DNA from: an uncultured beta proteobacterium
Lineage (GTDB): Bacteria; Pseudomonadota; Gammaproteobacteria; Burkholderiales; SG8-39
Assembly (NCBI GenBank): GCA_963735025.1
Contig: CAVTJG010000020.1
Location: 64,502-128,501 of the forward strand
DNA: 64,000 nucleotides
Reading direction: 5' to 3'
Part shown: positions 1-61,675 of the stretch, in pieces
Position numbering within the stretch: position 1 is the stretch's first letter
Layout of the letters: each line of letters opens with the position of its first letter
The notes under the pieces: model-generated
Database searches by the model: none
What the model was told of the DNA's origin: nothing
Seen by the model: only the letters and a program-made list of their open reading frames with translations
Translations under genes and position numbers: made by a program

Positions 1-209
1 AGGTGTCGGGCGCGCAAGCGGCATGCCCGAACCGGATGCTCCGCATCCTCGTCACAGGTAAGAATTGCCGAACCCCTATCCAATTGTTGCGGCACTCGCG
101 GCTACGGGCCGGGCCGATATCGAGCTAGGGACAATGAATCATGGACCTACGAGGGCCGCCTTCTGGCATGCATCTTGCCAAAGTGCAGCGGTGTCAACAG
201 GAGAAAACG

Positions 210-1709
210 ATGAAGCAATCGCTGCAATTGCACACGATCCAGAATCTCGCCATGACGCCGCAACTGCAGCAGTCGCTGCGGCTGCTGCAGTTGTCGGCGC
301 TCGAATTCGAGCAGGAGATTGGCCGTGCGCTTGCCGAGAATCCGTTTCTCGAACGTGACGAGGAAATCGCGCGGGACGGGGGGCACGGCGGCGACGAGCC
401 TGGTGCAGCACCGGTCGGCGAGATGAGCGAGCCGGCCTCCGCGCCGGCCGAAAGCGCGGACGCAAGCTCGATCCCCGCACAATCGTCGGACGCCGCCGAT
501 GATCGAGTCGCGCGCGACGATCTCATCGGTGACCGGTGGACCAGCCGCGCGCCGGCCAACGGGAGCGACGCGGTCGACGTAGGGGTCTACACTCCGGCGC
601 CCGAGACGTTGCACGACCACCTGATCGACCAGGTTCGTGGAAGCGGGCTTGCCGAGCGCGAGAAGCTGTTCGCGGGCATCGTCGTGGAAGCGCTCGACGA
701 CGACGGCTACCTGCGCCAGTCGATGGACGATCTGAGGCCGATCGTGCCCGCCACGATCGAGCCGGAAGAGATCGAAGGCGGGCTGAAATTCGGGCTGAGC
801 TTCGTGCAAAGCCTGGAACCCGCGGGCGTCGGAGCCAGGTCGCCGGCCGAGTGCCTCGAGCTGCAGCTCGCACGGTATGCCGCGGACCAGCCCGGGCGCG
901 ACCTCGCGCGCACGATCGTGCGCGAGCACCTGGATGCGCTGGCTGCGCACGACACGCACCGGCTCCTGCGCGAGCTCGAATGCGACGAGACAGACCTGCG
1001 CGAGGCTAGCGACCTCATCCTGCGCCTCGATCCGCACCCGGGATCGCGGTTCGGCGCGCTCGACGCCAGGTTCGTGGTGGCCGACGTCGTGATACGGCAG
1101 ACCGGCAGCCGGTGGGTCGCGAGCATCAACCCGGAGGTGCTGCCCCGGATTCGCGTGAACGAGCTCTACGCGAACATCTATCGCGCCGGCCGCGAAGGCA
1201 GCCTGGGCATGTCGCAGCAGCTGCAGGAGGCACGCTGGCTGGTGCGCAACGCGCAACAGCGGTTCCACACCATTCTGCGCGTCGCCCAGGCGATCGTCGA
1301 TCGGCAGAGCCGGTACTTCGACTACGGCGATGTCGCGATGAAACCGCTCTTGCAGCGCGACATCGCGCGGGAGGTCGGGGTGCACGAGTCGACGGTCTCC
1401 CGGGTCACGAACGGAAAATACATGGCGACGCCCCGCGGACTGATCGAGTTCAAGCACTTCTTCGGCACGCACGTGGTTGCGGAGGATGGGCACGCGTGCT
1501 CGTCCACCGCCATCCGCGCCCTGATCCGCCACATCATCGCCAACGAGCGCGCGGGCCAGCCGCTTTCCGACATCAAGGTGACGCGCAAGCTCGGCGAGTA
1601 CGGCGTGCGTGTCGCGCGTCGCACCGTGACGAAGTACCGTGACGGAATGCGCATCCCGCCGGTGGAGGCGCGACGGTTCGGCCACGCTCGGCCCTCCGCA
1701 ACTGTCTAG
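210..1709 (+). CDS. rpoN: RNA polymerase sigma-54 factor
   Basis: Tail of ORF 141..1709. It starts [29 protein letters not shown] (sigma-54 region I) and has a C-terminal HTH plus RpoN-box-like ARRTVTKYR. The ATG at 210 is preceded by GGAG. Confidence 0.95.
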
Positions 1710-1956: not shown

Positions 1957-1970
1957 GCAACGCGCATGCC
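1957..1970 (-). promoter_or_regulatory. sigma-54 (-24/-12) promoter candidate for dodecin
   Basis: The reverse strand reads GGCATGCGCGTTGC (GG-N10-GC with GGCAYG and TTGC). The -12 C lies 41 nt before the dodecin ATG. Confidence 0.7.
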
Positions 1971-6440: not shown

Positions 6441-7090
6441 CGCCGGTCGTCCACGTCGTCGACGACGACGCCGCAGTTCGCCAGGGGCTCGAACAGATGC
6501 TGGGCGCCGCAGGATTCGAGGTGCGCGTCTTTGCGAGCGCGGAGGCATTTCTCGCCGCGTGCAAGGAGGGGTGCACGGGGTGCGTAGTGCTCGACGTCGC
6601 GATGCCCGGAATGAGCGGACCCGAGCTGCAGGCAGCCCTGCTCGACAGGGGTCTCGACCTGCCGATCGTGTTTCTGACCGGGTACGGTGACGTTCCCACG
6701 TCGGTGCGCGCGATGAAGGCCGGCGCGGTGGATTTTCTCGAGAAGCCGGTGGCCGGCGCGACCCTCATCGCGACGGTGCGCAACGCCATGGCGCTCGAGG
6801 CGCGCCGGCACGAGGATCAAGCGCTGCGCGCCGTTGCGCAGGCCCGCTACGCAAGGCTCACCGGGCGCGAGCGTGAGATCATGGCCCTCGCGGTCCGCGG
6901 CCTCGCCAACAAGGAGATCGGCAAGCAGCTCGGACTCAGCCACCGGACGGTCGAGATCCACCGCGCGCGCGCCATGCGCAAGATGCATGCCGCGACGCTG
7001 CTCGAGCTCGCGCGGGCGGCGGCGCTCTGCGGGATCGCAGAGGGCTCCGGCGGCGCGCCCCCTGCCGCAGCCGATCCCGCCGCCAGCTGA
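6437..7090 (+). CDS. FixJ/LuxR-family response regulator
   Basis: A GTG at 6437 overlaps the kinase stop (GTGA). REC domain: VVHVVDDDAAVRQGLEQML...VLDVAMPGMSG. LuxR HTH: LTGREREIMALAVRGLANKEIGKQLGLSHRTVEIHR. Confidence 0.9.
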   Translation: MTPVVHVVDDDAAVRQGLEQMLGAAGFEVRVFASAEAFLAACKEGCTGCVVLDVAMPGMSGPELQAALLDRGLDLPIVFLTGYGDVPTSVRAMKAGAVDFLEKPVAGATLIATVRNAMALEARRHEDQALRAVAQARYARLTGREREIMALAVRGLANKEIGKQLGLSHRTVEIHRARAMRKMHAATLLELARAAALCGIAEGSGGAPPAAADPAAS

Positions 7091-19045: not shown

Positions 19046-19331
19046 TCACTTGGGATTCGACACACCGGCCTTGACCCGGGCGCGCAGGTCTTGAAAGGCG
19101 CCGTCGATGCCCGCGCTCGCGACCCCCCGCTCGTCATTTCCATTGCTGCACAGCTCCGCCAGTTTCAATTCGGCCGCCGTACACTTCGCGCGTAGCTCGT
19201 CGATTCGCCGCGTGATCTCGATCGATCCGGGAAGAGGCCTGATCGGCCTTGGCCTGCAACTCGTCGATTTCCGCCTGCCATTCCCTCAATTTCGCACGCT
19301 GCTGCTGCTCGTAGGCCTGCCGCCAGTCCAT
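19046..19331 (-). pseudogene. small coiled-coil protein, copy 1 (one frame change as sequenced)
   Basis: ATG at 19331: MDWRQAYEQQQRAKLREWQAEIDELQAKADQA. The sequence then continues in another frame as ...IEITRRIDELRAKCTAAELKLAELCSNGNDERGVASAGIDGAFQDLRARVKAGVSNPK*. The span is 286 nt (3n+1), so one extra base lies near 19235. Confidence 0.6.
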
Positions 19332-19372
19332 TGAATGCTCCTTTGCGCGTCGGTCTGCGGATATGTCGCGCA

Positions 19373-19386
19373 GCAATCCGCATGCC
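19373..19386 (-). promoter_or_regulatory. sigma-54 promoter candidate for the coiled-coil gene pair
   Basis: The reverse strand reads GGCATGCGGATTGC. The -12 C lies 41 nt before the ATG at 19331. Confidence 0.7.
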
Positions 19387-19543
19387 CGGTGTTCCGCTCC
19401 CTCATCCCGAACCAAACCGCTGCGCTCGGGTCATCTCCAACAGGCTCTTGAAAAATGGGTGGCATGCGCCGGGTTTTCAACAGGCTGCTAAACGGGGCGC
19501 GCGGCGATCGTGCGCCGCTTTTCCGCTCAAAGGAGGTTTACGC

Positions 19544-20668: not shown

Positions 20669-21304
20669 CTACGCATGCTCTCGCGGTCGTGAGATGGTAT
20701 TGGCAGCCGCGGAGCGCTGTATGGGCGCGATAATGCGAGGCGGTAGCCGCGGATCGAAATCGACCCAGTCGCCATCGCGGATCGTCCCGTCCGCCGCCTC
20801 GACCTCCAGAGCGTCCATGCCGACGAATACGTCGCAGGCGGCGGCCAAGCGCTCGGGGTCGTTCCCGACTTCCGCGGCGATGAGCGGGCCGGATTTGCGG
20901 CTCACGGGAAACTCGGGGGACGCTCTGGCCGGATTCGGGCGACGAGTTGCAACGAGTGCGCCGAACAAGGACCCGATGTAGGCGCCGATTGCGGCGCCGA
21001 GCGCGGTACCCAGCACTAACGCGCCCACGTTCCAATTCTTGTACAGAGCGTCGGCGATCAGCCAGCCCGCGAGCGCGCCCGCGAAGGCGCCTGCGGCGAT
21101 TCCGGCAATTGCTCCGCGCACGCTCTTGCGCGTGCCGCGGTCGTGCAATGCGTCGCCCCCGGCGGGATGCGTCGCGTGCTGCCCCGGGGGCAGCACTTGA
21201 AAGATTGACAGCTTGTCGCGCCGGATGCCCGCCTTCAACAGGGCTGTTAGCGCTCCTTCGGTCTCTGATTGCGTCTCGAATCGCGCCGCGATGATTTTTG
21301 CCAT
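20669..21304 (-). CDS. hypothetical membrane protein with glycine-zipper segment
   Basis: Internal Met (MAKIIAARFE) of ORF 20669..21394 with a GGAGG RBS. Gly/Ala-rich TM segments: GAIAGIAAGAFAGALAGWL and GALVLGTALGAAIGAYIGSLFGAL. Confidence 0.6.
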   Translation of the reverse strand: MAKIIAARFETQSETEGALTALLKAGIRRDKLSIFQVLPPGQHATHPAGGDALHDRGTRKSVRGAIAGIAAGAFAGALAGWLIADALYKNWNVGALVLGTALGAAIGAYIGSLFGALVATRRPNPARASPEFPVSRKSGPLIAAEVGNDPERLAAACDVFVGMDALEVEAADGTIRDGDWVDFDPRLPPRIIAPIQRSAAANTISRPREHA

Positions 21305-21347
21305 TGAAGTACCTCCGAATTCGGTCTGGGGAAAATGTGTTGGACGC

Positions 21348-21361
21348 GCAACCCGCATGCC
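21348..21361 (-). promoter_or_regulatory. sigma-54 promoter candidate for the glycine-zipper gene
   Basis: The reverse strand reads GGCATGCGGGTTGC. The -12 C lies 43 nt before the ATG at 21304. Confidence 0.7.
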
Positions 21362-21486
21362 CGGTGTGCCAGGGTGCTGGAAATTGTTTCCCACCGTCGG
21401 TCGAATCTGTCGGGCCGGTTTTCACCTGCGCCGGCCACGCCTACCGAAACCGCGCGAAAACAGCCTCTTGCGTCCGTTAGTCTGCC

Positions 21487-21908: not shown

Positions 21909-23285
21909 TCAGGCGCCGCCGCGATCACCTTCGCCGGGGCGGTCGCGTTGGTATTCGCGCAGGCGATTGTAGAGCGTCTTCGCGCTGACGCCCAGCATCT
22001 CGGCAGCCTTGTCGCGCCGTCCGTCGCAGTGCGCCAGTGTCGCGAAAATCAGCCGCCGCTCCATCTCCGCGATCGACGTGCCCATGGCGACCGCGACGCG
22101 CGCGTCGTTCGACTCCGGGCTGGGGGCCGACGTCTCGAACGACAGACAATCGGGGCCGATGCCGCTGCCCTCGGCCAGGATGAACGCCCGTTGCACCGCG
22201 TTCAGCAACTGGCGCACGTTTCCGGGCCAGTGGAAGCGTGAGAGCTCCTCGATGGCCAGCGGTGTGAATCGCTTGGAGGTCTGTTCCCGCGCGTTGAGCT
22301 CGGCCAGGAAATGGTTCGCGAGCAGCTCGACGTCCTCGAGCCGTTCGCGCAGCGGTGGCAGCCGGATCTCGAACACATTCAGACGGTAGAAGAGATCCTC
22401 GCGCAGCTTGCCCTCGGCAACCGCTTCGCCGGGCACGCGGTTCGTCGCCGCGATGATCCGCACGTCGGTGTCGATCGGCTCGTCGCCACCGATGCGCGAG
22501 AGCGATCCGGTCTCGAGGATGCGCAGCAGCTTGACCTGCAGATCGGCGGGCATCTCCGTGATTTCGTCGAGCAGCAGCGTGCCGCCGTCGGCGCGCTCGA
22601 AGTAGCCGTGGTGCTGGCGCGCGGCGCCGGTGAAGCTGCCCTTCTCATGACCGAACATCTCGCTCTCGATCAGCTGCGGCGAGATCGCACCGCAGTTCAC
22701 GGCGAGGAATGGGCGGTCGCGCCGGCGACTGAGGTCGTGTATGGTCTGCGCGACGAACTCCTTGCCGGTTCCGCTCTCCCCGGTCACCAGGACATTCACC
22801 GCGGTGCCCGCCACGCGGGAAATGTTCCGATAGACTTCCTGCATCGTCGGAGACCGTCCCCAAAGACGCCCGAACCGGCCGACTTCGGAGACGTCCTTCT
22901 CGAGCGTAGCGATGCGCGTCTTCAGCTCGCCCGGAGGCCTCACCCGCGCGAGAACGTTCTTGAGCTGCCGGATGTTGACCGGTTTGGTGAGATAGTCCGC
23001 TGCGCCGAGACGCAGGGCCTGGATCGAGGTGTCTAGCGATGCATGACCGGTGATGAGCACGATGTCGCTGTCGGCCACCTCGTCGACATCGGCGAAGAGG
23101 TCCATGCCGTTGCCGTCGGGCAGCATCAGGTCGAGCAGGATGACGTCCGGCGTGCGCAGAACGATCTGCTGGCGCGCCTCGGCGAGCGTTCCCGCCGCCG
23201 CAGTGCTGAATCCCTCGGTCTTGATCAGCTCCGCAAGGACTTCGGCTGAGTCGTGATCGTCTTCGACAATGAGTGCGTGTGGCAT
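21909..23285 (-). CDS. NtrC-family sigma-54-dependent response regulator (REC-AAA+-Fis HTH)
   Basis: Internal Met (MPHALIVEDD) of ORF 21909..23897. REC: VILLDLMLPDGNG. Walker A: VTGESGTGKE. GAFTGA-like: EKGSFTGA. Also WPGNVRQL and a C-terminal HTH, LGVSAKTLYNRL. Confidence 0.92.
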   Translation of the reverse strand: MPHALIVEDDHDSAEVLAELIKTEGFSTAAAGTLAEARQQIVLRTPDVILLDLMLPDGNGMDLFADVDEVADSDIVLITGHASLDTSIQALRLGAADYLTKPVNIRQLKNVLARVRPPGELKTRIATLEKDVSEVGRFGRLWGRSPTMQEVYRNISRVAGTAVNVLVTGESGTGKEFVAQTIHDLSRRRDRPFLAVNCGAISPQLIESEMFGHEKGSFTGAARQHHGYFERADGGTLLLDEITEMPADLQVKLLRILETGSLSRIGGDEPIDTDVRIIAATNRVPGEAVAEGKLREDLFYRLNVFEIRLPPLRERLEDVELLANHFLAELNAREQTSKRFTPLAIEELSRFHWPGNVRQLLNAVQRAFILAEGSGIGPDCLSFETSAPSPESNDARVAVAMGTSIAEMERRLIFATLAHCDGRRDKAAEMLGVSAKTLYNRLREYQRDRPGEGDRGGA

Positions 23286-23621
23286 TTGAAGAGCGTTGCG
23301 GGCCCGGGGTGGACGCGACCCCAGTAAGCCAGAAAGAATTTCTCTGCGTCGGTAAAAGCTGCACACTGGCTGGCGCGCTTCGAATCCTACTGGTTCGCTC
23401 AGCCACAACATATACGTGGTAGCCCTTACGCCAGCGCATGATGCGCCGGCGGTGAACCTCGGCACGCCGCGATCGGAAGAGCCGATCTCCGGGCGGAGCG
23501 CGTTCGGGCGGCCGAAAACAATCTTCACCTTCGCTCGAGAGGCTCTGCAATGAAGGCGGGAACGCCGCATGCGTGAGGATGTGATCAGGCGCCTTCCGTC
23601 ACAAGCGGGACGCCCCATCGT

Positions 23622-24269
23622 ATGACGCAAAGCGTAGAACACGCAGTCCGCGGGGCGGCGCGCGGCGTTCGCCCCATTTCGGAGGAACCGCGAGCCGATG
23701 CATCGCGAGCTGACGTGTACCGTGTTCTGGCACGGCTTCTCGCCATGCCGCCCCCGGCCCGACTGCTTCGCGAGCTCGCGTTGATCGAGGTTGCCCCAAG
23801 CGGAGCGCCAGCGCCCGGAAGCATGCACGGCGTCTGGCGAGCGCTCCAGCAAGCGGCCGCGCAAACGACGGTCGAGGCGGCCGATGACGAGTACCACGAT
23901 CTGTTCATCGGGATCAGCCGCGGCGAGCTCATGCCGTACGCCTCCTGGTACCTCAGCGGTTTCGTCATGTCCCGCCCGCTCGCGCTACTGCGCCGCGACC
24001 TCGACGCATTCGGGATCGAACGGCATCCCGAGGTGCGCGAGCCGGAGGACCACGTGAGCGCGCTGTGCGAGGCGATGGGCCTCGTCATCGACAGCGCGGA
24101 CGAGATCCCGCTCGAGGCCCAGAAGCAGTTTTTTCACGATCACCTCGCGCGCTGGATGCCGCGGTTTTTCGGCGACCTGCAGCGCGCGAAGTCCGCGCGC
24201 TTCTATGTCCCGGTCGGCGCGCTGGGCGAACGATTCATGGCGATGGAGACGCAGTACCTGGCGACGTAG
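23622..24269 (+). CDS. TorD/DmsD-family redox-enzyme maturation chaperone
   Basis: ORF 23622..24269, directly upstream of the formate dehydrogenase genes. The DEYHDLFIG...PYASWY pattern is typical of TorD-like chaperones. Confidence 0.7.
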   Translation: MTQSVEHAVRGAARGVRPISEEPRADASRADVYRVLARLLAMPPPARLLRELALIEVAPSGAPAPGSMHGVWRALQQAAAQTTVEAADDEYHDLFIGISRGELMPYASWYLSGFVMSRPLALLRRDLDAFGIERHPEVREPEDHVSALCEAMGLVIDSADEIPLEAQKQFFHDHLARWMPRFFGDLQRAKSARFYVPVGALGERFMAMETQYLAT

Positions 24270-31047: not shown

Positions 31048-32310
31048 TCAGCTGCCGGCCTTCTCGACCTCCTCGCGCACTTTGGCAACCTCGTCCGCAT
31101 TGGTACGCGGAGCGCGATTGCCCCAGGCGTTGCGGATATAGTTCACGAGATCGGCCACCTGCTGGTCGTCGAATTTCCAGCCGTACGCGGGCATTGCGAG
31201 CCCGGTGGGCCTGCCGCTGGTCTTGGCCGCTTGCGCACCGGCAAGGATGATGTGCGCCAACGTGTCGCCGCGTTCGGCCTGGATCGACGAGCTTCCCTTG
31301 AGCGCAGGGAATACGCCGGCGAGCCCGTCGCCGTCTTCCATGTGACATCCAGTGCAATTGTCAAGATACAGCGCTGCGCCGCGCGCCAGCGCCGCGCGAT
31401 CGCTATCGCTGGCCGACGACTCGCGCGCCGCCATTGATTCATCGTGCTCGGCCGGCAACGCCTTCAGATAGACCGCGATCGCCTGCAGATCCGCGTCGTC
31501 GAGATGTTGGGTCGAATGACGCACGACATCGGCCATTGGGCCGGCAGCGGTGGTATGTTCATTTGCACCGCTTTTCAGGTACTCGATGATCTGCGCGGCG
31601 GTCCAGCCGCCGAGGCCCGAGCGCAGGCCGCCGCTCAAGCTCGGGGCGTACCAGCGCTCACCGAAGGAGCCGCCCTCGAGCCGCTGATCGCGCTTGGGGG
31701 CGCCGAGCAGGTTCTTATCGGTGTGGCAAGCGCCGCAATGACCCAGTCCTTCGACCAGATACGCGCCGCGGTTCCAGTCTGCCGACTTGTCGCTGCGCGG
31801 CACGTACTCGCCCTCGTGTAGATACAGGGCGTTCCAGCCTCTCATCGCCGCACGCACGCTCAGCGGCCATGGCAGCTCGGGTGCGCGGTTTTCTTGTCGG
31901 ACCGGCTCGAGGGTGTCGAGGTAGGCCTTCATCGCGCGGATGTCTGCGCGGCCAACTTTCGTGAACCAGGGGTAAGGGAAGGCGGGATACAGGAGCGCGC
32001 CGTCGCGGCGCACGCCGTGGTGCATCGCATTGTAGAAATCCGCGTCGGAGTACTTGCCAATGCCGGTCTGCGGATCGGGTGTGATATTGGTCGAGTAGAT
32101 CGTGCCGAACGGCGTTGCCATCGCCAGTCCGCCGGCGAAGGGTTTGCCGCCCGGATTGGTGTGACACGCCGCGCAGTCGCCAGCGGCGACTAGGTAGCGC
32201 CCTCTTTCGATGGTGGTATACGTCCTGCCCTGGGCGACGAGATCGGTCGGAGCGAGCAGCAGCGCCGCGAGAACGCCGGCAAGCCAGAGCGCTGGGTGCG
32301 ATGTGCGCAT
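31048..32310 (-). CDS. triheme cytochrome c subunit of a membrane-bound FAD dehydrogenase (gluconate 2-dehydrogenase-like)
   Basis: ORF 31048..32310. Signal peptide plus three CxxCH motifs (CAACH, CGACH, CTGCH). Confidence 0.9.
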   Translation of the reverse strand: MRTSHPALWLAGVLAALLLAPTDLVAQGRTYTTIERGRYLVAAGDCAACHTNPGGKPFAGGLAMATPFGTIYSTNITPDPQTGIGKYSDADFYNAMHHGVRRDGALLYPAFPYPWFTKVGRADIRAMKAYLDTLEPVRQENRAPELPWPLSVRAAMRGWNALYLHEGEYVPRSDKSADWNRGAYLVEGLGHCGACHTDKNLLGAPKRDQRLEGGSFGERWYAPSLSGGLRSGLGGWTAAQIIEYLKSGANEHTTAAGPMADVVRHSTQHLDDADLQAIAVYLKALPAEHDESMAARESSASDSDRAALARGAALYLDNCTGCHMEDGDGLAGVFPALKGSSSIQAERGDTLAHIILAGAQAAKTSGRPTGLAMPAYGWKFDDQQVADLVNYIRNAWGNRAPRTNADEVAKVREEVEKAGS

Positions 32311-32335: not shown

Positions 32336-34108
32336 TCACACCTCGATCAGCGGCCGTCCGGGGCTCTTCAGATACCGATTGCGAATTGCGTCGGCGGCCC
32401 AGTACGTGAGCGCACCCACCGTGCCGGTCGGGTTGTATCCGGGGTTCTGTGGAAACACCGAGGCACCCATCACGAACAGGTTCGAAACGTCCCACGACTG
32501 CAGGTAGCGATTGACGACGCTGGTTTGCGGGTCGGCGCCCATCACCGCGCCGCCCGTGTTGTGAGTGGTCTGGTAGGGAGCGATCCGATAGTGGCCCTTG
32601 CGGTAGTTCTTCTCCATCGAGCGCGGCTTCATCGCGTGCGCTATCTTGGCGGCCTGATCGGTCAGGAATTTCGACATCCTGATCTCATTGTCATGGAAAT
32701 CGAAGGTCATTCGCAGCAGCGGGTTGCCGTAGTCGTCGCGATAGGTCGGATCGAGATCGAGATACGAACCGCGATAGCTCATCACGCTGCCGTGGGTGGC
32801 GATTGATGCGCTGCGCTGATAGTTCTCGTGTCTTGCCTTCTTCCAGGCACTGCCCCATTTCGGCGTGCCCGCAGGCACGAGGTTTTGCTGGAGGATCGGC
32901 CGCCCGCCAGTTGTCCAGAGCGCGATGTAGCCGCCGCCGATGAACCCATGCGGCCCATGGTCGAAGTTGTCGCCGTTGAACTCGTCGATGGCCTGGCCAA
33001 GCGCGCCGGCGCCCATGAAAGGGTTGAGATTCTGCTCGTTCACGAAAACGTGCACCGAAGACGTGATCTGGTAGGCGTAGTTGCGTCCGACCGCCCCTAC
33101 GCCGAATCGCGGATCGTAGGGCTTGCCGATTCCGGAGAGCAGCAGCAGATGGACGTTGTGGTGCGCGTACGCGCAAAGTATCACCAGCTCCGCCGGCTGC
33201 TCGAACTCGCGGCCGTTGACGTCCACGTAAGTGACGCCGGTCGCGCGCTTTCCCGAGGCATCGAGATTCACGCGCGTGACGTTGCACAACGTTCGCAATG
33301 AGAAATTGTCCTTCTCGACAAGCACGGGCAGGATCGTCGTCTGCGGCGACGCCTTCGAATAATTGCCGCATCCGAACCATTCGCAGAATCCGCAATAGGT
33401 GCACTGTCCCATCTGCACGCCATACGGATTGCGGTAGGGACGCGAGGTATTGGCAGCCGGGCACGGAAAGGGCTGAAAACCCGCTTCGCGCGCGGCCTTG
33501 TCGAACAGCACCGTCGCATAGCTGCGCTCGAGCGGCGGCAATGGGTAGTCGCGCTGGCGCTGTCCCTCGAACGGATTGCCGCCGGGCTGCAGCGCGCCTT
33601 TCAGGTTGCCGGCCTTTCCGGAGACGCCGCAAAGATACTCGAAGCGGTCGTAGAATGGCTCGAGCTCGTCATAGGTAACGCCCCAATCCTGCAAGGTCAT
33701 GTCCTGCGGGATGAATTTCTTGCCGTAACGCCGCTCGATGTGTGTGCGTGCGAGGAAGTCGCTCGGCAGGAAGCGCCAGCACTGGCCGTTCCAGTGCACG
33801 CCGGCGCCGCCGACGCCTGATCCCGGATTGAACGAGCCGAGATGACGCATCGGCAGTGCAGTCTGCTCGATTGAATTCCGAAAGGTGAGCGTTTCCCGCG
33901 CGAGCTCCTCGAAGAGGCCGTTGCGCACCGCATAGCGAAGTTCGTCTTGAATGTGCGTCGGCGCGAAGTCGGGCACCGTATCGCGTGTTTTGCCGCGTTC
34001 GATCGCGAGCACCCGCATCCCGGCGTCGGTCAGCTCCTGCGCCAGGATCGACGCGGTCCAGCCGAAGCCGACCAGGACCACGTCCACCGGCTCGAGTTTG
34101 GTGGCCAT
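32336..34108 (-). CDS. GMC-family FAD dehydrogenase large subunit (gluconate 2-dehydrogenase-like)
   Basis: Internal Met (MATKLEPVDVVLVGFGWTASILA) of ORF 32336..34159 with a GGGAGG RBS. The pattern is that of a GMC oxidoreductase. Confidence 0.9.
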   Translation of the reverse strand: MATKLEPVDVVLVGFGWTASILAQELTDAGMRVLAIERGKTRDTVPDFAPTHIQDELRYAVRNGLFEELARETLTFRNSIEQTALPMRHLGSFNPGSGVGGAGVHWNGQCWRFLPSDFLARTHIERRYGKKFIPQDMTLQDWGVTYDELEPFYDRFEYLCGVSGKAGNLKGALQPGGNPFEGQRQRDYPLPPLERSYATVLFDKAAREAGFQPFPCPAANTSRPYRNPYGVQMGQCTYCGFCEWFGCGNYSKASPQTTILPVLVEKDNFSLRTLCNVTRVNLDASGKRATGVTYVDVNGREFEQPAELVILCAYAHHNVHLLLLSGIGKPYDPRFGVGAVGRNYAYQITSSVHVFVNEQNLNPFMGAGALGQAIDEFNGDNFDHGPHGFIGGGYIALWTTGGRPILQQNLVPAGTPKWGSAWKKARHENYQRSASIATHGSVMSYRGSYLDLDPTYRDDYGNPLLRMTFDFHDNEIRMSKFLTDQAAKIAHAMKPRSMEKNYRKGHYRIAPYQTTHNTGGAVMGADPQTSVVNRYLQSWDVSNLFVMGASVFPQNPGYNPTGTVGALTYWAADAIRNRYLKSPGRPLIEV

Positions 34109-34112
34109 CGCC

Positions 34113-34844
34113 TCAGCCTCCCTGGCGTGGCCGCGCGCCGCTTCGACCCGCGAGACCAACCGTCGGTTCCGTGTAGGGCTTGCCGTGCTGGCGGATCTCG
34201 ATCACATAGTTGTAGCGAGGTCCCGGAAAACCGAGCAACTTCCAGCCGGCGAAATCGCGATTTCCGCCGTAGATGGGATCGGCAAAGTATCCCTCATTCG
34301 TGTTCTGCAGCAGCATGTGGAAGAACTCCTTCGCCGGCAAGCCGTTCAGTGCGATCTCGCCCTGTTCGAGCCCGTGCAGCACCTCGTCCTGCGCCGACGC
34401 CGTCAGCTGGGCAAACGACTTGCCGGCCCGCGTTTTCCGGCAATGCTCGTCGACGGCGGCAATCGCCGCGCGATAGAGCTGTGCGGGCGTCAGCTTCAGT
34501 TGGTAACCCTGCTCGTCGGTTCCTTCTTTCCAGGGTCCCTGCATGTACCAGGCCTCACCACGGCCGAAAGGCCCCGCCAGCTGTTGGTCGATAAAGAACG
34601 CGACGCCGGCCTCGAGCGCGCCCGGCCCGAGCGCGTCGGCCGGAATCAAGCGTCCGACCGCGGCCTTGAGAAAGTCGATCTCTGGTGCGGCTGCCCAACT
34701 GAACGACTCCGCGACCGGTGGCGGCAACAACGACTGCGCCACTGCTGCCGTGGCTGCGCGGGGCGCGAACCAGAAGGCCGCGCCCACGGCGCCAGCGGCA
34801 GCAGCGGCCTTGCGGAACAGCTCGCGGCGCGTGAGGCGAGGCAT
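34113..34844 (-). CDS. Tat-signal small (gamma) subunit of the FAD dehydrogenase
   Basis: Internal Met (MPRLTRRELFRKAAAAAGAVGA) of ORF 34113..35162. The gene order gamma-alpha-cytochrome c is as in gluconate 2-dehydrogenases. Confidence 0.85.
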   Translation of the reverse strand: MPRLTRRELFRKAAAAAGAVGAAFWFAPRAATAAVAQSLLPPPVAESFSWAAAPEIDFLKAAVGRLIPADALGPGALEAGVAFFIDQQLAGPFGRGEAWYMQGPWKEGTDEQGYQLKLTPAQLYRAAIAAVDEHCRKTRAGKSFAQLTASAQDEVLHGLEQGEIALNGLPAKEFFHMLLQNTNEGYFADPIYGGNRDFAGWKLLGFPGPRYNYVIEIRQHGKPYTEPTVGLAGRSGARPRQGG

Positions 34845-34886
34845 GGTGCAGACTCTCTCAGAGGGCAAGGAACATCGACGGTGAAG

Positions 34887-34900
34887 GCAAACGTCATGCC
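34887..34900 (-). promoter_or_regulatory. sigma-54 promoter candidate for the sugar dehydrogenase operon
   Basis: The reverse strand reads GGCATGACGTTTGC. The -12 C lies 42 nt before the ATG at 34844. Confidence 0.7.
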
Positions 34901-34940
34901 CGGAATGGGATCGACGCCTCTGATCCAAACCTGGCGCAAC

Positions 34941-35281
34941 CCGGGCGTCGGCTGCCCGGTCTTCGGCCTGCAGAAATTGTCGGCGCCACCACCGGTAACG
35001 CTTACACGGAGCCTCGGCCGACCGGAAATGGCCGAGGCTGGTCGGAGCGCATCCTGGCGGCAACAAGACCTGCGCGCAAGGCTCTTTCTCTTGCGAAATA
35101 CAGGCACGCCCCGGGCGTCGGCTGCCCGATCTTCGGCAAGCGGAAATTGCCGGCGCCACCACCGGTAACGCTTACGCGGAGCCTCGGCCGACCGGAAATG
35201 GCCGAGGCTGGTCGGAGCGCATACTGGCGGCAAGAAGACCTGCGCGCGAGGCTCTCGCGGTGCGAAATGCAGGCACGCCCC
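34941..35281. repeat. tandem direct repeat, 2 x ~170 bp (~90% identical by eye), each with a perfect 10-bp dyad
   Basis: Copy 1 starts CCGGGCGTCGGCTGCCCG at 34941 and copy 2 at 35111. Dyads AGCCTCGGCC-N10-GGCCGAGGCT lie at 35010..35039 and 35180..35209. Confidence 0.85.
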
Positions 35282-35285
35282 TTGC
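35272..35285 (+). promoter_or_regulatory. sigma-54 promoter candidate for the act (ACIII) operon
   Basis: GGCACGCCCCTTGC lies at the right edge of repeat copy 2, 120 nt upstream of the actA ATG. Confidence 0.65.
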
Positions 35286-35405
35286 GTGAGCGGTCGTGCG
35301 CAAGTGTCTGTAGCGCCGGGACGAAACATCGCATGACGCAGGGTCGGCTGGCTTCTCGCCGCGCCGCCCCCGGCCCAATCCGGCGGCGAGAGAGCTATCA
35401 AGTAA

Positions 35406-36056
35406 ATGCCGCAGATATTCCGCCCGTCCACGGGGCTCGTCCTCAACCTCGTGCTGCTCGCAGGCGTGGCAGTGATGGCAGCACTGGTCTTCGCGTGGCG
35501 GGAGGCGATCGCTGATCGGTACGGCATCGGGGACCCGGTCCCGCAGCCGGTGCCGTTCAGCCACAAGCACCACGTGGCAGAGGAGGGCATCGACTGCCGC
35601 TACTGCCACAGCGACGTGGAGCAATCAGCCTTTGCCGGGATTCCCGCAAACGATGTCTGCATGACGTGTCATTCGGTCCTGTTCCGCGACGCGTCCGTGC
35701 TGGCACCGCTACGCGCGAGCTTCCGCGGCGGCAAGCCGCTCGCGTGGAGGCGGGTGAACAAACTGCCCGATTTCGTCTACTTCGATCACGGCATCCACGT
35801 CGCGAAAGGCGTGGGTTGCGTCACCTGCCACGGCCGGGTCGACCAGATGCCACTCACGTGGCGCGCTCGCTCCCTGGCCATGCAGTGGTGCCTGCAATGC
35901 CACCGCCATCCCGAGCAGCACGTCCGTCCACGCGAGCACGTGTTCGAGATGGCCTGGCAACCGCCGCCGGACCGCGCTGCGCTCGGACGAAGGCTCGTCG
36001 CCGAGTACGGCATCCACGCTGATCGCGTGACCGACTGCTCGGTCTGCCATCGCTGA
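35406..36056 (+). CDS. actA: alternative complex III pentaheme cytochrome c subunit
   Basis: ORF 35406..36056. N-terminal TM and five CxxCH motifs (CRYCH, CMTCH, CVTCH, CLQCH, CSVCH). Confidence 0.9.
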   Translation: MPQIFRPSTGLVLNLVLLAGVAVMAALVFAWREAIADRYGIGDPVPQPVPFSHKHHVAEEGIDCRYCHSDVEQSAFAGIPANDVCMTCHSVLFRDASVLAPLRASFRGGKPLAWRRVNKLPDFVYFDHGIHVAKGVGCVTCHGRVDQMPLTWRARSLAMQWCLQCHRHPEQHVRPREHVFEMAWQPPPDRAALGRRLVAEYGIHADRVTDCSVCHR

Positions 36057-51798: not shown

Positions 51799-51812
51799 GG
51801 CACGCCGATTGC
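51799..51812 (+). promoter_or_regulatory. sigma-54 promoter candidate for sodB
   Basis: GGCACGCCGATTGC lies on the coding strand, 71 nt upstream of the sodB ATG. Confidence 0.65.
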
Positions 51813-53214: not shown

Positions 53215-54132
53215 TTATCCGCCTTGCCTGCGCGGCGTCGCGACATCAGCCTGCGAGTTGAGGCGATCCGGCGCGACATTGAGCTTCGCCAGAGTCTGCG
53301 GATTGAGCCAGCCAGTCATCTCCAGGCCCTCTTGCTGCTGGAACTTGTAGACCGCTGCTTTCGTCTGTGGACCCCAAGTGCCGTCTATGCTGCCGACGTC
53401 GAACCCCCTCTCGTGCAATGCCTGCTGCGCCGCTCGAATCGTCCGCGGATTGTCGCGGACGTATTCGGGCCGCTGCTCGCTTTCAGGCCGCACAGCATTC
53501 CGGGACTGCATTCCGGAGTTTCCATGCAACTGCACCTGGAGCTTCGCCAGCGTGTCCGGCTCCAGCCGGCCGCTCGCAAACAGGCCCTCGCGCTCCTGGA
53601 AATCGATCAATGCGGCTCTGCTCTTCGGACCCCATATGCCGTCCACGCCACCGACGTCGAACCCCTGGTCTTGCAGGGCCTGCTGTGCCGCGCGCACGGT
53701 ATCCGGATCGTAACGATCGTACGTCATGGACGCACTGCGGGACGCTTCCGTGGTCCGGGAGTGCATGGCGCCGGCGGATTCCTCTGTGGTCCGAGACTGC
53801 ATATGCTGGTCGCTCTGCCTGACCTCGAGCTTCGCCAGGGTCGCCGGCTCGAGCCGGCCGCTGGCAAACAGCCCTTCGCGTTCCTGGAATCTTTGCAGTG
53901 CCGCACGTGTCTGGGGACCCCAGACTCCGTCGATTTCGCCTTCGTACAGGCCCCGCTGCTGGAGTGCCTGTTGCGCTTCGCGCATCGTGCTCGAGTCATA
54001 CGTCGAATAAGCACTTTGGGATTTCTGTTTCTGGGATTCCTGTTTCATGCTCTGCGACGGATCGGCTGCGAGAGCCGGTCCCACGAGTGCAACTGCGGTG
54101 GTCGTCGCCAGGGCGATTTGCTTCAATTTCAT
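53215..54132 (-). CDS. secreted protein with three peptidoglycan-binding (PG_binding_1-like) repeats
   Basis: Internal Met (MKLKQIALATTTAVALVGPALA) of ORF 53215..54723. The module AQQALQ..G...G..DG.WGP..RAAL..FQ..EGL..SG.L...TLAKL occurs three times. Confidence 0.8.
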   Translation of the reverse strand: MKLKQIALATTTAVALVGPALAADPSQSMKQESQKQKSQSAYSTYDSSTMREAQQALQQRGLYEGEIDGVWGPQTRAALQRFQEREGLFASGRLEPATLAKLEVRQSDQHMQSRTTEESAGAMHSRTTEASRSASMTYDRYDPDTVRAAQQALQDQGFDVGGVDGIWGPKSRAALIDFQEREGLFASGRLEPDTLAKLQVQLHGNSGMQSRNAVRPESEQRPEYVRDNPRTIRAAQQALHERGFDVGSIDGTWGPQTKAAVYKFQQQEGLEMTGWLNPQTLAKLNVAPDRLNSQADVATPRRQGG

Positions 54133-56359: not shown

Positions 56360-58192
56360 CTACCGAAGGGTCATGGCATACGCGAGCGAGACTCCGCTCG
56401 TGATCAGTCCGACATGGCTGAGCGCTTGAGGGAAATTGCCGAGAAACGCGCCGTTCACGGGGTCGATCTGCTCGGGCAGAAGCCCGAGAGGATTGGCGCG
56501 CGCGCACACTGCTTCGTACATTTCGAGCGCGTCGTCGATCCGCCCCTGCAGCGCAAGGTTGTCCACCAGCCAGAAGCTGCAGAGCAGGAACGCGCCCTCT
56601 TGGTCCGGCAGCCCGTCCGGCAATTCGTGCCGCAGGTAGCGGTAGACTAACCCGTTTGCCGGCGACAGCCGCTCGGTAATCGCTGCAGTGGTCGCCTTCA
56701 TGCGCGGATGATCTGCAGGAATTAGGCGGCGCAGCGGCAGGGCGAGCACGCTCGCGTCGAGCGCATCGCCGCCCAGGTGCGCGGCGAACGCCCCGAGCCG
56801 TTCGTTCCATGCTCCCTCGACAATCGTATCGCGCATGCGCGCCGCGTCCGCGCGCCAGTCCGCGACGTCCCCGGTAAGCCCCAGTGCCTCGGCGACACGC
56901 GCGCCGCGGTCCACCGCGACCTGACACATTGCAGCGGAGTAGGTGAACGGTCGCGCCACTGAGCGTACCTCCCAGATGCCCTGGTCGGGCGCATCCCATG
57001 CGTCGCGCGCCATCTACGCGAGCGGCCGCAGGCGCGCCCATAGCGGGTCGTCGATCGTGCCGCCACGCCTGGCCCACAGATACGCACAGTCGAGAATCTC
57101 GCCGAAGATGTCGTGCTGGCGCTGCGCGGCCGCGGCATTTCCCCAGCGCACCGGCGCCGAGCGGCGGTAGCCTTCCAACCTCTCGTCCACGCGCTCGGCA
57201 GGTGCTTCCAGGCCGTCGAGCGTGTACAGGACGCGGGGATGCCCACCGCGCTCGACGACGTCGAGCACCCAGGCGAGGAAACCCGCCGATTCGTGATTGA
57301 GGCCGATGCGACTCATTGCGTAGACGCTGAACGCCGCGTCACGAACCCAGGCATAGCGATAGTCCCAGTTGCGCACGCCTCCGATCGTCTCGGGCAAGGA
57401 GGAGGTCGGCGCCGCAACCATGGCCCCGTTCTCGAAGTGATCAAGCAGTTTCAAGGTGATGGCCGATCTTCGCACCAGCGAAACGTGCGGGCCCTCGTAC
57501 TGGATGTTCGACTGCCAGCGCTCCCAAGCCTCGACCGTCGCTCGATAGATCGCCTCCGGGTCCACGCCCTGCGCCCGGCGCCCCGCGGTGTGCCAGCGGA
57601 GCACAAGATGGTTCCGGTCGCCGCGCGCCAGGGCGATGCTAGTTCGCGGCCCCTCAATTGGGAAATCTGTGTCGAGCTGCAGTCCGAAGTCGGAGCGTGC
57701 GGAACACCGGATGGACAGGCCGTCGCCGCGCCGCTCGGTCGCGGCGCCGCCCCATGGCTCGAGCTCGACGCGCAAACGCACGCGCCCCTCCACAACCTCG
57801 ATCATGCGCAGCAGCTCGCCCCGTGCCGCCTTGACGTCCTCGGTCAGGTCCGCGCCCGACTGGAGCGTCATCATGTCGGTGATGCGCGCGATGCCGCCGT
57901 GCGCGTCGGCAAGTTCGGTGACCAGTACGCCGGTGTCGCCCAGATAGCGCTGGCGGGACGCGGTGAGCCCCTCCGGCGCAATCGTAAAACCGCCGCCGCG
58001 CGTGCGATCGAGGAGCCCGGCGAAGATCGGCGGATCATCGAACTGGGGCGCGCACAGCCACGAGACCGTGCCATCGCGCCCGACGAGCGCTGCCGTCTCG
58101 CCATCGCCGATCAAGCCATGATCTGCGATCGGAAGATAGCCATCCTGGTATGCGAGCGGCGCGAAATCGTCTGTCATCCGGATACAGTGCAA
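56360..58192 (-). pseudogene. GH15-family glycoside hydrolase (glucoamylase/trehalase-like) interrupted by an in-frame TAG
   Basis: ORFs 57014..58192 and 56360..57013 are in the same frame and abut: ...DPLWARLRPLA-TAG-MARDAWDAPDQGIWEVR... Together they form one GH15-like protein of about 610 aa. Confidence 0.8.
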
Positions 58193-60502: not shown

Positions 60503-61540
60503 TTACCGGCTCGGTGCCCTCGACACGTAATCAGGATCGAACTCGCGTTGGTGCGCGAGCAGCGCCCAGGCGATGCGCACATTCTTGTTGGCGAGCGCCA
60601 CGGCAGCGACGTTCTTGCCGCGCCGGAGCATCAGGCGTTTGAGCCAGCTGTCGGGTCGATCGGGCCGGTGCTCGAGGTGTCGGAGCACCGAGCGCGCGCC
60701 GTGGACGAGCAGCGTGCGCAGGTAGACATCCCCGTGCTTGCTGATGCCCAGGAGCCTGGGTTTGCCGCCGGTGGAATCCTGTCGCGGCACGATCCCCAGC
60801 CAAGCGGCGACCTGGCGCCCATTGTTGAAGCCCTTGGCATTGCCCAGGCTCGCCACGTAGGCGCTGGCCGTAAGTGGCCCGATGCCGCCGATGCGCTCGA
60901 GCCGGCGGCTGTCCTCGTTCTGCCGATGCCAAAGCACGATCTCGCGCTCGAGTTCCGAGACCTGCTGGTCGAGCCCCTGGAGTTGCGCCAGGAGTCTCTT
61001 CATCAGAGTACGCATCAGCCCCGGTAGGCGATTCTCGCTGTCCTCCACGATCTCGGGAAGCCGGCGACGCAGCTGACCAATGCCCTGGGGTAAAACGATT
61101 CCGAACTCGCCCAGCAGCCCGCGGATCTGATTGGCCTGCGCGTTGCGGGCTTTCATCATCCCCGCGCGTGCGCGGTGCAACGCGAGCGCTGCCTGCTGCT
61201 CGGGAGTCTTGACCGGTACGAAGCGCATGTTCGGCCGCGCCACCGCCTCGCAGATCCCCTCGGCATCATTGCGGTCGTTCTTGTTGGTCTTCACGTACGG
61301 CTTGACGAACTGCGGCGCCATGAGCCTGACCTCGTGGCCCAGCTCGACGAGTCTCCGCGCCCAATGGTGGGCGCTGCCACAGGCTTCCATCCCGATCAGG
61401 CAGGGCGGCAGGTCGGTAAAGAACTTCAGCATCTCGCTGCGTCTGAGTTGCTTGCGCAGCACCGCTCGCCCGCGCTCACTCACCCCGTGGACCTGGAACA
61501 CGCTCTTTGCTAGATCGATACCCACTGTCGTAATCTTCAT
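60503..61540 (-). CDS. IS110-family transposase/recombinase
   Basis: Internal Met (MKITTVGIDLAKSVFQVHG) of ORF 60503..61675. DEDD-type N-terminal domain (GIDLAK, GMEACG, NDRNDAEGI) plus a Transposase_20-like C-terminus (IGGIGPLTASAYVA). Confidence 0.92.
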   Translation of the reverse strand: MKITTVGIDLAKSVFQVHGVSERGRAVLRKQLRRSEMLKFFTDLPPCLIGMEACGSAHHWARRLVELGHEVRLMAPQFVKPYVKTNKNDRNDAEGICEAVARPNMRFVPVKTPEQQAALALHRARAGMMKARNAQANQIRGLLGEFGIVLPQGIGQLRRRLPEIVEDSENRLPGLMRTLMKRLLAQLQGLDQQVSELEREIVLWHRQNEDSRRLERIGGIGPLTASAYVASLGNAKGFNNGRQVAAWLGIVPRQDSTGGKPRLLGISKHGDVYLRTLLVHGARSVLRHLEHRPDRPDSWLKRLMLRRGKNVAAVALANKNVRIAWALLAHQREFDPDYVSRAPSR

Positions 61541-61543
61541 GAC

Positions 61544-61622
61544 GGACGCCCCCTCTCGGTTAAGTGGTCGAATCGCACTGCCACTTTGGCGCACGTGACG
61601 CCGCAGCGGGAGGGGAGCGTCC
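61544..61622 (-). ncRNA. candidate structured RNA in the recombinase 5' region (possible IS110 bridge-RNA-like element)
   Basis: A long-range helix pairs GGACGCCCCCTCTC (61544-61557) with GGGAGGGGAGCGTCC (61608-61622), about 14 bp with one bulge. It encloses two hairpins: AAGTGG...CCACTT (61562-61586) and GGCG-CACGTGA-CGCC (61588-61602). Confidence 0.3.
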
Positions 61623-61640
61623 ATCCCATTAGGGGGTCGT

Positions 61641-61666
61641 GGGTTCAAATCCTGCCGGGCGCGCCA
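61641..61666 (+). other. tRNA-Arg-like 3' fragment (T-loop + acceptor + CCA), not an intact tRNA
   Basis: GGGTTCAAATCCTGCCGGGCGCGCCA closely resembles the 3' end of tRNA-Arg as I remember it (..GGTTCGAATCCTGTCGGGCGCGCCA). No matching 5' acceptor strand, D-arm or anticodon arm lies upstream. Confidence 0.6.
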
Positions 61667-61675
61667 TCCATTCAA

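Follow-up and report, generated by a model that had tools for sequence, protein, structure and literature searches.

Divergent pairs of sigma-54 promoters served from a single intergenic region are exemplified by hyc-hyp, which is under the control of FhlA. At glnAp2, the NtrC enhancer is composed of two adjacent dimer sites near -140 and -108, NtrC sites being dyads of ~17 bp about three helical turns apart. The Cit+ case of the long-term Escherichia coli experiment is reportedly a laboratory example of promoter capture by duplication. In E. coli and Salmonella, the divergent sigma-54 promoters of zraP-zraSR are driven by ZraR (PMC4987338), and promoter capture via microhomology-mediated duplication or deletion has been documented in bacteria (PMC6614815). 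The locus analysed here is a gap between a sugar-dehydrogenase operon (minus strand) and an alternative-complex-III (ACIII, act) operon (plus strand), located in a stretch of 64,000 nucleotides (hereafter the window) of contig CAVTJG010000020.1 from an uncultured beta proteobacterium (assembly GCA_963735025.1). The gap holds two outward-facing sigma-54 cores and, between them, a tandemly duplicated unit of 170 bp, each copy of which carries a perfect 10-bp dyad.

The feature is genuine and not due to chance, and it is best described as ordinary sigma-54 cis-regulatory DNA whose history is informative. With a probability that we put at roughly one half, the gap would be a bidirectional sigma-54 control region formed by capture of the promoter of an FDH3-type formate dehydrogenase operon and later tandem duplication of a cis-regulatory unit, to which a bacterial enhancer-binding protein (bEBP) would bind.

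Divergent sigma-54 promoters and the tandem 170-bp unit

An earlier reading of the sequence without database searches (hereafter the sequence-only reading) had put the gap at 560 bp. Its length is 561 bp, both flanking gene starts being fixed by the lengths of homologous proteins; the dehydrogenase small subunit starts with the ATG at 34844 (minus strand) and its homologues of 239-243 aa align with 100% coverage. The two outward-facing sigma-54 cores reported in the same reading were recovered to the nucleotide (Table 1). Compared with the extended consensus TGGCACG-N4-TTGCW, in which the GG and GC elements are 10 nt apart, both cores have the consensus -24/-12 spacing, point outwards and lie at a short distance from their genes, the core ending 43 nt (dehydrogenase) and 120 nt (actA) before the start codon. 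When the transcription start is placed 12 nt downstream of the last base of the -12 GC, the inferred starts lie near 34875 (leftward) and near 35297 (act); from these starts, the leftward leader is 31 nt long and contains the Shine-Dalgarno-like sequence GAGAGAG, and the act leader is ~109 nt long. No sigma-70-like promoter was found in 34500-35700. On sequence grounds, both outward sigma-54 promoters are credible, and the sigma factor itself (rpoN) and an NtrC-type bEBP are both encoded in the window (Table 1).

The pattern GGCAYG-N4-TTGC is ~24-fold enriched in the 64 kb (17 matches vs 0.72 +/- 0.94 in shuffles), and most of the cores lie 14-130 nt upstream of the starts of open reading frames (ORFs) with a high GC content at third codon positions (GC3). 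Further cores include those at 14-27 (-), 165-178 (+), 1957-1970 (-), 6978-6991 (-), 12202 (+), 13142 (+), 18578 (-), 19373 (-), 21348 (-), 21488 (+), 51799 (+), 55429 (-), 56328 (-) and 58217 (+). The genes and operons preceded by a core include the superoxide dismutase gene (SOD), a Na+/H+ exchanger gene, rpoN and respiratory operons. In the loci retrieved from other organisms, a single match to the pattern was found in an unrelated genome and the remainder lie upstream of the SOD gene of a close relative (JGI samples 33000433xx, ~90% identical at the FDH3 and SOD loci), in which the SOD-upstream core (51799 in the window) is a conserved island. No upstream motif common to the 17 cores was found.

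The density of cores, ~1 per 3.8 kb, is unusually high for a proteobacterium-like genome. Two more divergent core pairs, ~130 bp apart, are present at 14-27 (-)/165-178 (+) and at 21348-21361 (-)/21488-21501 (+); the first is predicted to drive rpoN (start near 210), which implies sigma-54 control of its own gene. Ahead of its SOD gene, the close relative carries two sigma-54 cores in tandem (783-796 and 898-911 in locus L039; 450-463 and 565-578 in locus L041), unlike the window, where the core at 51799 is single. Three sigma-54 promoters (19180-19480, 21150-21450 and 1-120, all on the minus strand) have in common an extended promoter-plus-leader sequence, ACCGGGCATGCGGnTTGC..GCG.C.ACA...CCnCAGACCGA...AGG...TTCAATGG, which stands ahead of unrelated small ORFs; these three look-alike regions may be further copied promoter cassettes.

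Between the two promoters, the head-to-tail direct repeat of ~170 bp, judged by eye to be ~90% identical, was confirmed by two methods. Tandem Repeats Finder delimits it at 34940-35281, with a period of 170, 2.0 copies and 91% matches, and a MAFFT alignment of the two copies gives 92% identity. As the copies differ at ~15 positions, collapse or expansion during assembly is ruled out. The duplication is bounded by imperfect 10-nt direct repeats, GGCGCAACCC and GGCACGCCCC: GGCGCAA[CCC] (34933-34942) at the left breakpoint is identical at 7/10 positions to the unit end GGCACGC[CCC] (35272-35281), and the internal junction (J1) links the unit end to the unit start via the common CCC. The right breakpoint lies between the -24 and -12 elements of the act promoter, so that the internal junction is a hybrid and the outer junction keeps the original promoter. 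Indeed, J1 fuses the -24 element of the unit end to the unit start and, as the sequence-only reading had it, keeps GG-N10-GC and lacks the TT; it is a possible weak third promoter or decoy. Head-to-tail copies, direct repeats at the breakpoints and a hybrid at the junction are the signature of a microhomology-mediated tandem duplication, by which, as the sequence shows, the second copy arose.

Long ORFs across the repeat were dismissed, the length of the unit being no multiple of 3 and both gene starts being fixed by homologues. The pentamer GAAAT occurs at 34973, 35025, 35095, 35143, 35195 and 35264, that is three times per unit and on the plus strand only (P about 3e-4 per unit). One GAAAT falls within the spacer of the dyad and another shortly precedes the -24 element; they are not kept in the FDH3 paralogue described below, and the recurrence is unexplained.

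Homology with the torD-FDH3 control region

The act control region has a paralogue in the window, at the FDH3-type formate dehydrogenase operon. Indeed (i) a profile of both copies of the unit has one further match in the window, at 23454-23576 (nhmmer, E=3.7e-4), (ii) a colinear 27-mer at 35350-35376 is 25/27 identical to 23734-23760 (blastn, E=1.6e-5), and (iii) the local alignment of 35179-35340 with 23454-23629 has a score of 47, vs 21.6 +/- 2.2 and a maximum of 30 for shuffles. Overall, the paralogous stretch covers 35179-35376 vs 23454-23760, beginning at the dyad, crossing the act promoter and ending in the leader; the act segment is about 65-70% identical to the donor-type region, and just three instances of the segment exist in the window (the two copies and FDH3). 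With an FDH3-gap profile built from the window and three contigs of the close relative, nhmmer matched copy 2 with promoter and leader (E=2.7e-8), copy 1 (1.5e-4) and the 27-mer (0.011), all colinear.

The donor-type region covers part of the 336-bp gap between an NtrC-family bEBP gene (minus strand, ATG at 23285) and a chaperone gene of the torD family (torD, ATG at 23622), plus the 5' end of torD. The latter heads the FDH3-type operon, which encodes a peptide with a twin-arginine translocation (Tat) signal and the alpha, beta and gamma subunits, the beta subunit scoring above the NCBIfam cut-off for FDH3. The bEBP gene is transcribed divergently from this operon and is ~11 kb from the act gap. 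The aligned blocks comprise the left arm of the dyad (GAGCCTCGGC / GAACCTCGGC), GGTCGGAGCGC...GGCGGC and then ACCTnCGC...GGCTC, the promoter (GCAGGCACGCCCCTTGCGTGAG / GCGGGAACGCCGCATGCGTGAG) and CGGGACG...CATCGnATGACGCA, which is the context of the torD start codon. The sigma-54-like core of FDH3, GGAACGCCGCATGC at 23559-23572 (plus strand), is homologous to the act core GGCACGCCCCTTGC; its GGAAC -24 variant is kept in the close relative, and a similar GGGAACACTGCTTGCT is found 88 nt upstream of torD in locus L038.

The act leader contains the remnant ATGACGCA of the torD start context (35333-35340) and, after a deletion of 95 nt relative to torD, the 27-mer, whose translation corresponds to TorD residues 38-47, within the conserved core of the TorD family; homology to the FDH3 locus ends 29 nt short of the actA start codon. 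From this torD coding remnant in the act leader it follows that copying went from FDH3 to act. An act promoter that is homologous to the FDH3 promoter and is accompanied by a fragment of torD, the first gene there, is indicative of promoter capture, and the act promoter region was, as shown by homology, copied from the FDH3 locus. The sequence-only reading had supposed that the right-hand promoter was created at the outer junction of copy 2; this has to be given up, since a promoter homologous to that of the FDH3 operon predates the duplication. No significant similarity to the FDH3 gap is seen in the leftmost ~68 nt of the unit (best piece 12/14, p=0.13), and the unit is thus a chimera.

A 9-bp perfect inverted repeat, TCTCGCCGC ... 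GCGGCGAGA, is also present in the act leader (35354..35391, plus strand) and runs up to a Shine-Dalgarno-like GAGAGAG. Its left arm lies inside the torD remnant and its right arm abuts this actA Shine-Dalgarno-like sequence; it is a candidate hairpin that may be involved in translational control.

A history in three steps is proposed for the gap. In the first step, shown by homology, a piece of the FDH3 locus comprising the upstream DNA from ~-105, the -24/-12 promoter and the start of torD was copied ahead of actA, whereby a sigma-54 promoter of the FDH3 type came to control the ACIII/oxidase operon; the copied part of torD then decayed, with loss of the 95 nt mentioned above. In the second step, shown by the sequence, 170 bp (~-187 to -16) were duplicated head to tail between the imperfect repeats, leaving a hybrid pseudo-promoter at the internal junction and an intact promoter at the outer one. 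In the third step, for which we infer that the unit holds one or more bEBP sites, the bEBP would reach the sigma-54 holoenzyme at both promoters by DNA looping. The best candidate for this activator is the NtrC-type regulator encoded at 21909-23285, because its own divergent FDH3 control region is a paralogue of the unit; this is the sole bEBP gene in the window, and the corresponding gene of the close relative is likewise called at 458 aa.

According to the sequence-only reading, the duplication may have supplied one enhancer per promoter. This does not hold, the single pre-duplication copy having been already at -150 and -102 from the two starts. Instead, each promoter retained a proximal copy and gained a second, distal one 170 bp (~16.2 helical turns) further away, the start-to-start distance increasing from ~252 to ~422 bp. 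The expected quantitative effect would be more bound activator, less promoter competition and possibly a weak tandem promoter at J1.

A sigma-54 promoter is of no use unless its activator site is present, and a successful capture must therefore include upstream DNA. If the proposed history is true, the gap is a natural record of an enhancer-dependent promoter moved to a new operon, in which the promoter and its upstream DNA can still be recognised together with a decayed part of the first gene of the donor operon.

The dyad and the function of the unit

Each copy of the unit carries the perfect 10-bp dyad noticed in the sequence-only reading, and the distances given there (about 150 and about 100 bp upstream of the starts) agree with those of the dyad centres from the inferred starts (Table 1). 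This geometry, a dyad-symmetric site within about 80-150 bp upstream of the inferred starts, is that of a bEBP enhancer. Also in favour of an enhancer are the origin of the right half of the unit, which derives from the control region beside the window's sole bEBP gene, and the existence of divergent sigma-54 pairs that share one region, as with ZraR. The 10-mer arm has 4 matches in the 64 kb, all in this gap, vs 0.34 expected. By our own estimate, a perfect 10-bp inverted repeat within 25 nt is expected ~0.04 times in 561 GC-rich bases; the second dyad is owed to the duplication and is hence no independent evidence. The dyad is the best candidate for a bEBP site, and for the simple form of the proposal, in which the dyad itself is the enhancer, the evidence leans against. 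Of the duplicated enhancer initially suggested, it is thus the geometry that fits, and the dyad neither recurs in the window nor is conserved in the FDH3 paralogue.

Several observations weigh against the control-region reading and against the dyad as its enhancer. None of the 15 remaining sigma-54 cores is preceded by the dyad, and no related dyad was found above chance elsewhere in the window. No part of the FDH3 paralogues is more variable or less conserved than the dyad region: the close relative's version is an imperfect palindrome, CCTCGCCGCG-N7-CGCGACGAGG, with a different inner sequence, the FDH3 copy in the window carries an insertion of 8 nt and no longer has the right arm, and the folding of these paralogues is not better than that of shuffles (z = +0.3 and +0.9). 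Arms of 10 bp with a 10-bp spacer also exceed the typical length of an NtrC-family site. The copied segment does not include those blocks upstream of FDH3 that are best conserved (23331-23450), and the real enhancer of the FDH3 operon may not have been copied. The differences between the two copies avoid the centre of the unit (minimum of 1 mismatch in any 72-nt window, p=0.011; longest perfect run 46 nt, p=0.06); this mismatch-poor centre, which favours the control-region reading if it is due to constraint, could reflect gene conversion rather than selection. Finally, no orthologue of the act/dehydrogenase gap, and thereby no phylogenetic footprint, was found in the databases searched, for which reason the functional claims made here are inference. 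No ActA or dehydrogenase small-subunit protein of the close relative is present in the protein database, and in more distant relatives the FDH3 control region occurs with neither an adjacent bEBP gene nor the module and gave no footprint.

A rival explanation is a passenger duplication, that is a neutral slip between short direct repeats, in which the dyad would be a non-functional quasi-palindrome, perhaps perfected by template switching, and the enhancer would lie elsewhere in or outside the unit. The microhomology at the breakpoints fits this explanation, as do the poor conservation and unremarkable folding of the dyad region in the FDH3 paralogues, the imperfect palindrome of the close relative and the absence of the dyad from every other promoter in the window. 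However, direct repeats of 170 bp are prone to deletion, and with ~9% divergence between its copies the duplicate is long-lived; the avoidance of the central 72 nt by the copy differences and the position of the dyad inside the usual enhancer distance of both promoters count against it as well. A passenger duplication is considered possible but rather unlikely.

The dyad could alternatively be bound by a regulator other than a bEBP, either a repressor or a second, operon-specific activator, in which case the duplication would have doubled an operator. The dyad is locus-specific, and nothing like its long and perfect 10-N10-10 symmetry is seen ahead of the other sigma-54 cores, as would suit such a regulator, but no candidate regulator gene adjoins either operon in the Pfam-annotated neighbourhood in the window, and the letters of the DNA do not distinguish this explanation, which appears improbable, from binding by a bEBP.

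The sequence-only reading had also offered that the dyads are RNA hairpins or a repetitive extragenic palindromic (REP)-like element, neither of which was supported: no Rfam match, no covariation and no dispersed copies were found. An RNA element, in which the unit would be or contain a structured RNA (small RNA or leader) forming an imperfect hairpin topped by the dyad, would account for the folding of the units, which is modestly better than that of shuffles on both strands (z = -1.7 to -2.3) and yields a long imperfect hairpin of this kind. The GG-N10-GC retained at J1 could transcribe copy 2, and the three GAAAT per unit are confined to a single strand. In contrast, Rfam has nothing for the region even at E<=10 and, for the whole window at gathering thresholds, just chance microRNA/small-RNA matches far below threshold; no intrinsic terminator with a T-run is present, apart from one weak minus-strand candidate (35118-35106), and the folding energy shows no strand preference. 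Moreover, RNAalifold gives a covariation term of -0.12 and a single compensatory pair among 23, the corresponding hairpin regions of the paralogues are unstable and both strong promoters lie downstream of both units. An RNA element is thus very improbable.

A REP-like repeat, or one resembling a miniature inverted-repeat transposable element (MITE), could have been mobile and inserted twice; the perfect hairpin is GC-rich and intergenic, and an IS110-family transposase is encoded in the window. The unit and the dyad were searched for beyond the gap, and the unit is not a dispersed repeat in the collections scanned. Indeed (i) no other copy of the unit was found in the 64 kb by blastn or nhmmer, save the colinear FDH3 paralogue, (ii) the dyad with a free spacer has 22 single matches in 185,579 species genomes (source genome not included), none with the unit and all spread over unrelated phyla with differing spacers and flanks, (iii) a 20-mer comprising the dyad spacer and the inner arm ends has 10 chance matches in JGI metagenomes, and (iv) blastn found no match in the plasmid collection. 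Many copies at unrelated loci were therefore encountered neither in the window nor in the genome, metagenome and plasmid collections. The two copies, furthermore, abut precisely in head-to-tail order, with microhomology, and lack both terminal inverted repeats and target duplications; a mobile repeat is extremely unlikely.

Coming back to the bidirectional sigma-54 control region, a comparison is offered by the closest homologues. Besides the source itself, the best homologue of ActA is 66% identical and that of the dehydrogenase small subunit 71% identical. In the first of these relatives, a LysR-family regulator gene lies upstream of actA; the second has a PAS kinase and a NarL-type regulator. 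The carriers of the closest homologues control both operons otherwise, and sigma-54 control is thus, on this comparison, lineage-specific.

A wider proposal is that the lineage's broad sigma-54 regulon grows by copying of promoter-plus-upstream cassettes, the act region being such an FDH3 copy, chimeric, with a torD fragment and tandem-duplicated into two enhancer-plus-(-24) modules. We hold this joint claim to be tentative and rather doubtful. If it were true, formate oxidation, the periplasmic sugar dehydrogenase and ACIII/oxidase would belong to one activator-controlled respiratory regulon. The control-region reading itself, if true, predicts co-regulation of the quinone-reducing FDH3, the quinol-oxidising ACIII with its oxidase and the periplasmic flavoprotein dehydrogenase, and the tandem duplication would be a simple test case for the effects of enhancer copy number and promoter spacing at two divergent sigma-54 promoters. 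The locus would then be a natural case of regulatory rewiring, involving no new mechanism or kind of system and leaving what is known of sigma-54 unchanged.

Features of the locus and comparison with known systems

The coordinates of the features are given in Table 1. The leftward operon encodes a three-subunit flavoprotein dehydrogenase of the gluconate-2-dehydrogenase type, in which the small-subunit gene comes first. Downstream of actA, actB, ActD, cytochrome c and COX2 genes are present.

Table 1. Coordinates of the act/dehydrogenase gap, its flanking genes and the related loci in the window
Feature	Position	Strand	Basis or remark
Dehydrogenase small subunit (Gluconate_2-dh3 family, Tat signal)	34113..34844	-	translation, Pfam, homologues
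GMC oxidoreductase gene	32336-34159	-	second in leftward dehydrogenase operon
Cytochrome c gene	31048-32310	-	third in leftward dehydrogenase operon
actA, pentahaem cytochrome of alternative complex III	35406..36056	+	homologues of 214-217 aa, 100% coverage
Leftward sigma-54 core GGCATGACGTTTGC	34900->34887	-	exact match to GGCAYG-N4-TTGC
Rightward sigma-54 core GGCACGCCCCTTGC	35272-35285	+	GGCAYG-N4-TTGC match
Copy 1 of the 170-bp unit	34940..35109	.	Tandem Repeats Finder, MAFFT, direct-repeat family D3
Copy 2 of the 170-bp unit, ~-187 to -16 of act promoter	35110..35281	.	Tandem Repeats Finder, MAFFT
Left breakpoint context J0, GGCGCAA[CCC]	34930..34942	+	sequence, alignment of flanks
Hybrid junction J1 GGCACGCCCCGGGC	35103..35116	+	sequence
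Dyad 1, AGCCTCGGCC-N10-GGCCGAGGCT	35010..35039	.	exact match; centre ~-150 from leftward start, ~-272 from act start
Dyad 2, AGCCTCGGCC-N10-GGCCGAGGCT	35180..35209	.	exact match; centre ~-102 from act start
Segment paralogous to 23454-23629, dyad left arm through promoter to torD start context ATGACGCA	35179..35340	+	alignment, nhmmer
torD coding remnant, codons 38-47, RLLAMPPPAR, in act leader	35350..35376	+	blastn, nhmmer, conserved TorD core
Donor-type FDH3 control region and 5' end of torD (ATG at 23622)	23454..23760	+	blastn, nhmmer, local alignment
NtrC-family response-regulator bEBP, REC + AAA+ + HTH_8, 458 aa	21909..23285	-	Pfam, NCBIfam
rpoN (sigma-54)	210..1709	+	Pfam AID/CBD/DBD; NCBIfam match from residue 24 of ORF beginning at 141

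Other features of the window were recorded. The gap separating torD from the bEBP gene contains a 37-nt AT-rich block (23331-23367, CAGAAAGAATTTCTCTGCGTCGGTAAAAGCTGCACAC), which includes the palindrome AGAAA-gaa-TTTCT and is identical in the window and the close relative; it may serve the bEBP gene as an operator or a promoter. Adjoining rpoN, a 1277-aa fusion of CheB methylesterase, CheR methyltransferase, PAS domains and histidine kinase is encoded at 2607-6440 and contains a coiled-coil repeat with a period of 21 nt at 4670-4858. At 53276-53984, a 163-nt direct repeat (family D2) is present in three copies, ~71% identical and at spacings of 258 and 288 nt, which probably correspond to a repeated protein domain. 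Two abutting ORFs (56360-57013 and 57014-58192, minus strand) make up a split glycoside hydrolase family 15 / trehalase-like gene, and the split may be due to a frameshift or indicate a pseudogene. The IS110-family transposase gene lies at 60503-61675 (minus strand) and has no sequence link to the repeat unit by blastn.

Compared with described elements, the unit resembles the hairpins of REP sequences and bacterial interspersed mosaic elements (BIME) in being a GC-rich, perfect inverted repeat in an intergenic position, but differs from them in not being dispersed and in its size of 170 bp, far above that of REP elements. As at glnAp2, the putative sites lie in the same distance range and an NtrC-family regulator is present in the window; unlike at glnAp2, the dyads are 30 bp long and 170 bp apart, with no match to TGCACC-N5-GGTGCA.

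The likeness to zraP-zraSR and hyc-hyp resides in the outward -24/-12 promoters that flank a putative activator-binding region, with a bEBP gene nearby. The differences are that the bEBP gene is here 11 kb off rather than adjacent and is linked by paralogy only, that the putative site is one long 10-N10-10 dyad per unit rather than paired short sites, and that the segment bearing the site is tandemly duplicated.

With regard to promoter capture, the event proposed here, in contrast to that obtained in the laboratory, is natural and old (the act segment being about 65-70% identical to the donor-type region) and left the donor copy intact, and the captured promoter is sigma-54-dependent and would need an enhancer too. 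As in laboratory promoter capture, a promoter with a fragment of its original downstream gene now stands before another operon and, as in the documented cases (PMC6614815), the breakpoints, here those of the later tandem duplication, show microhomology.

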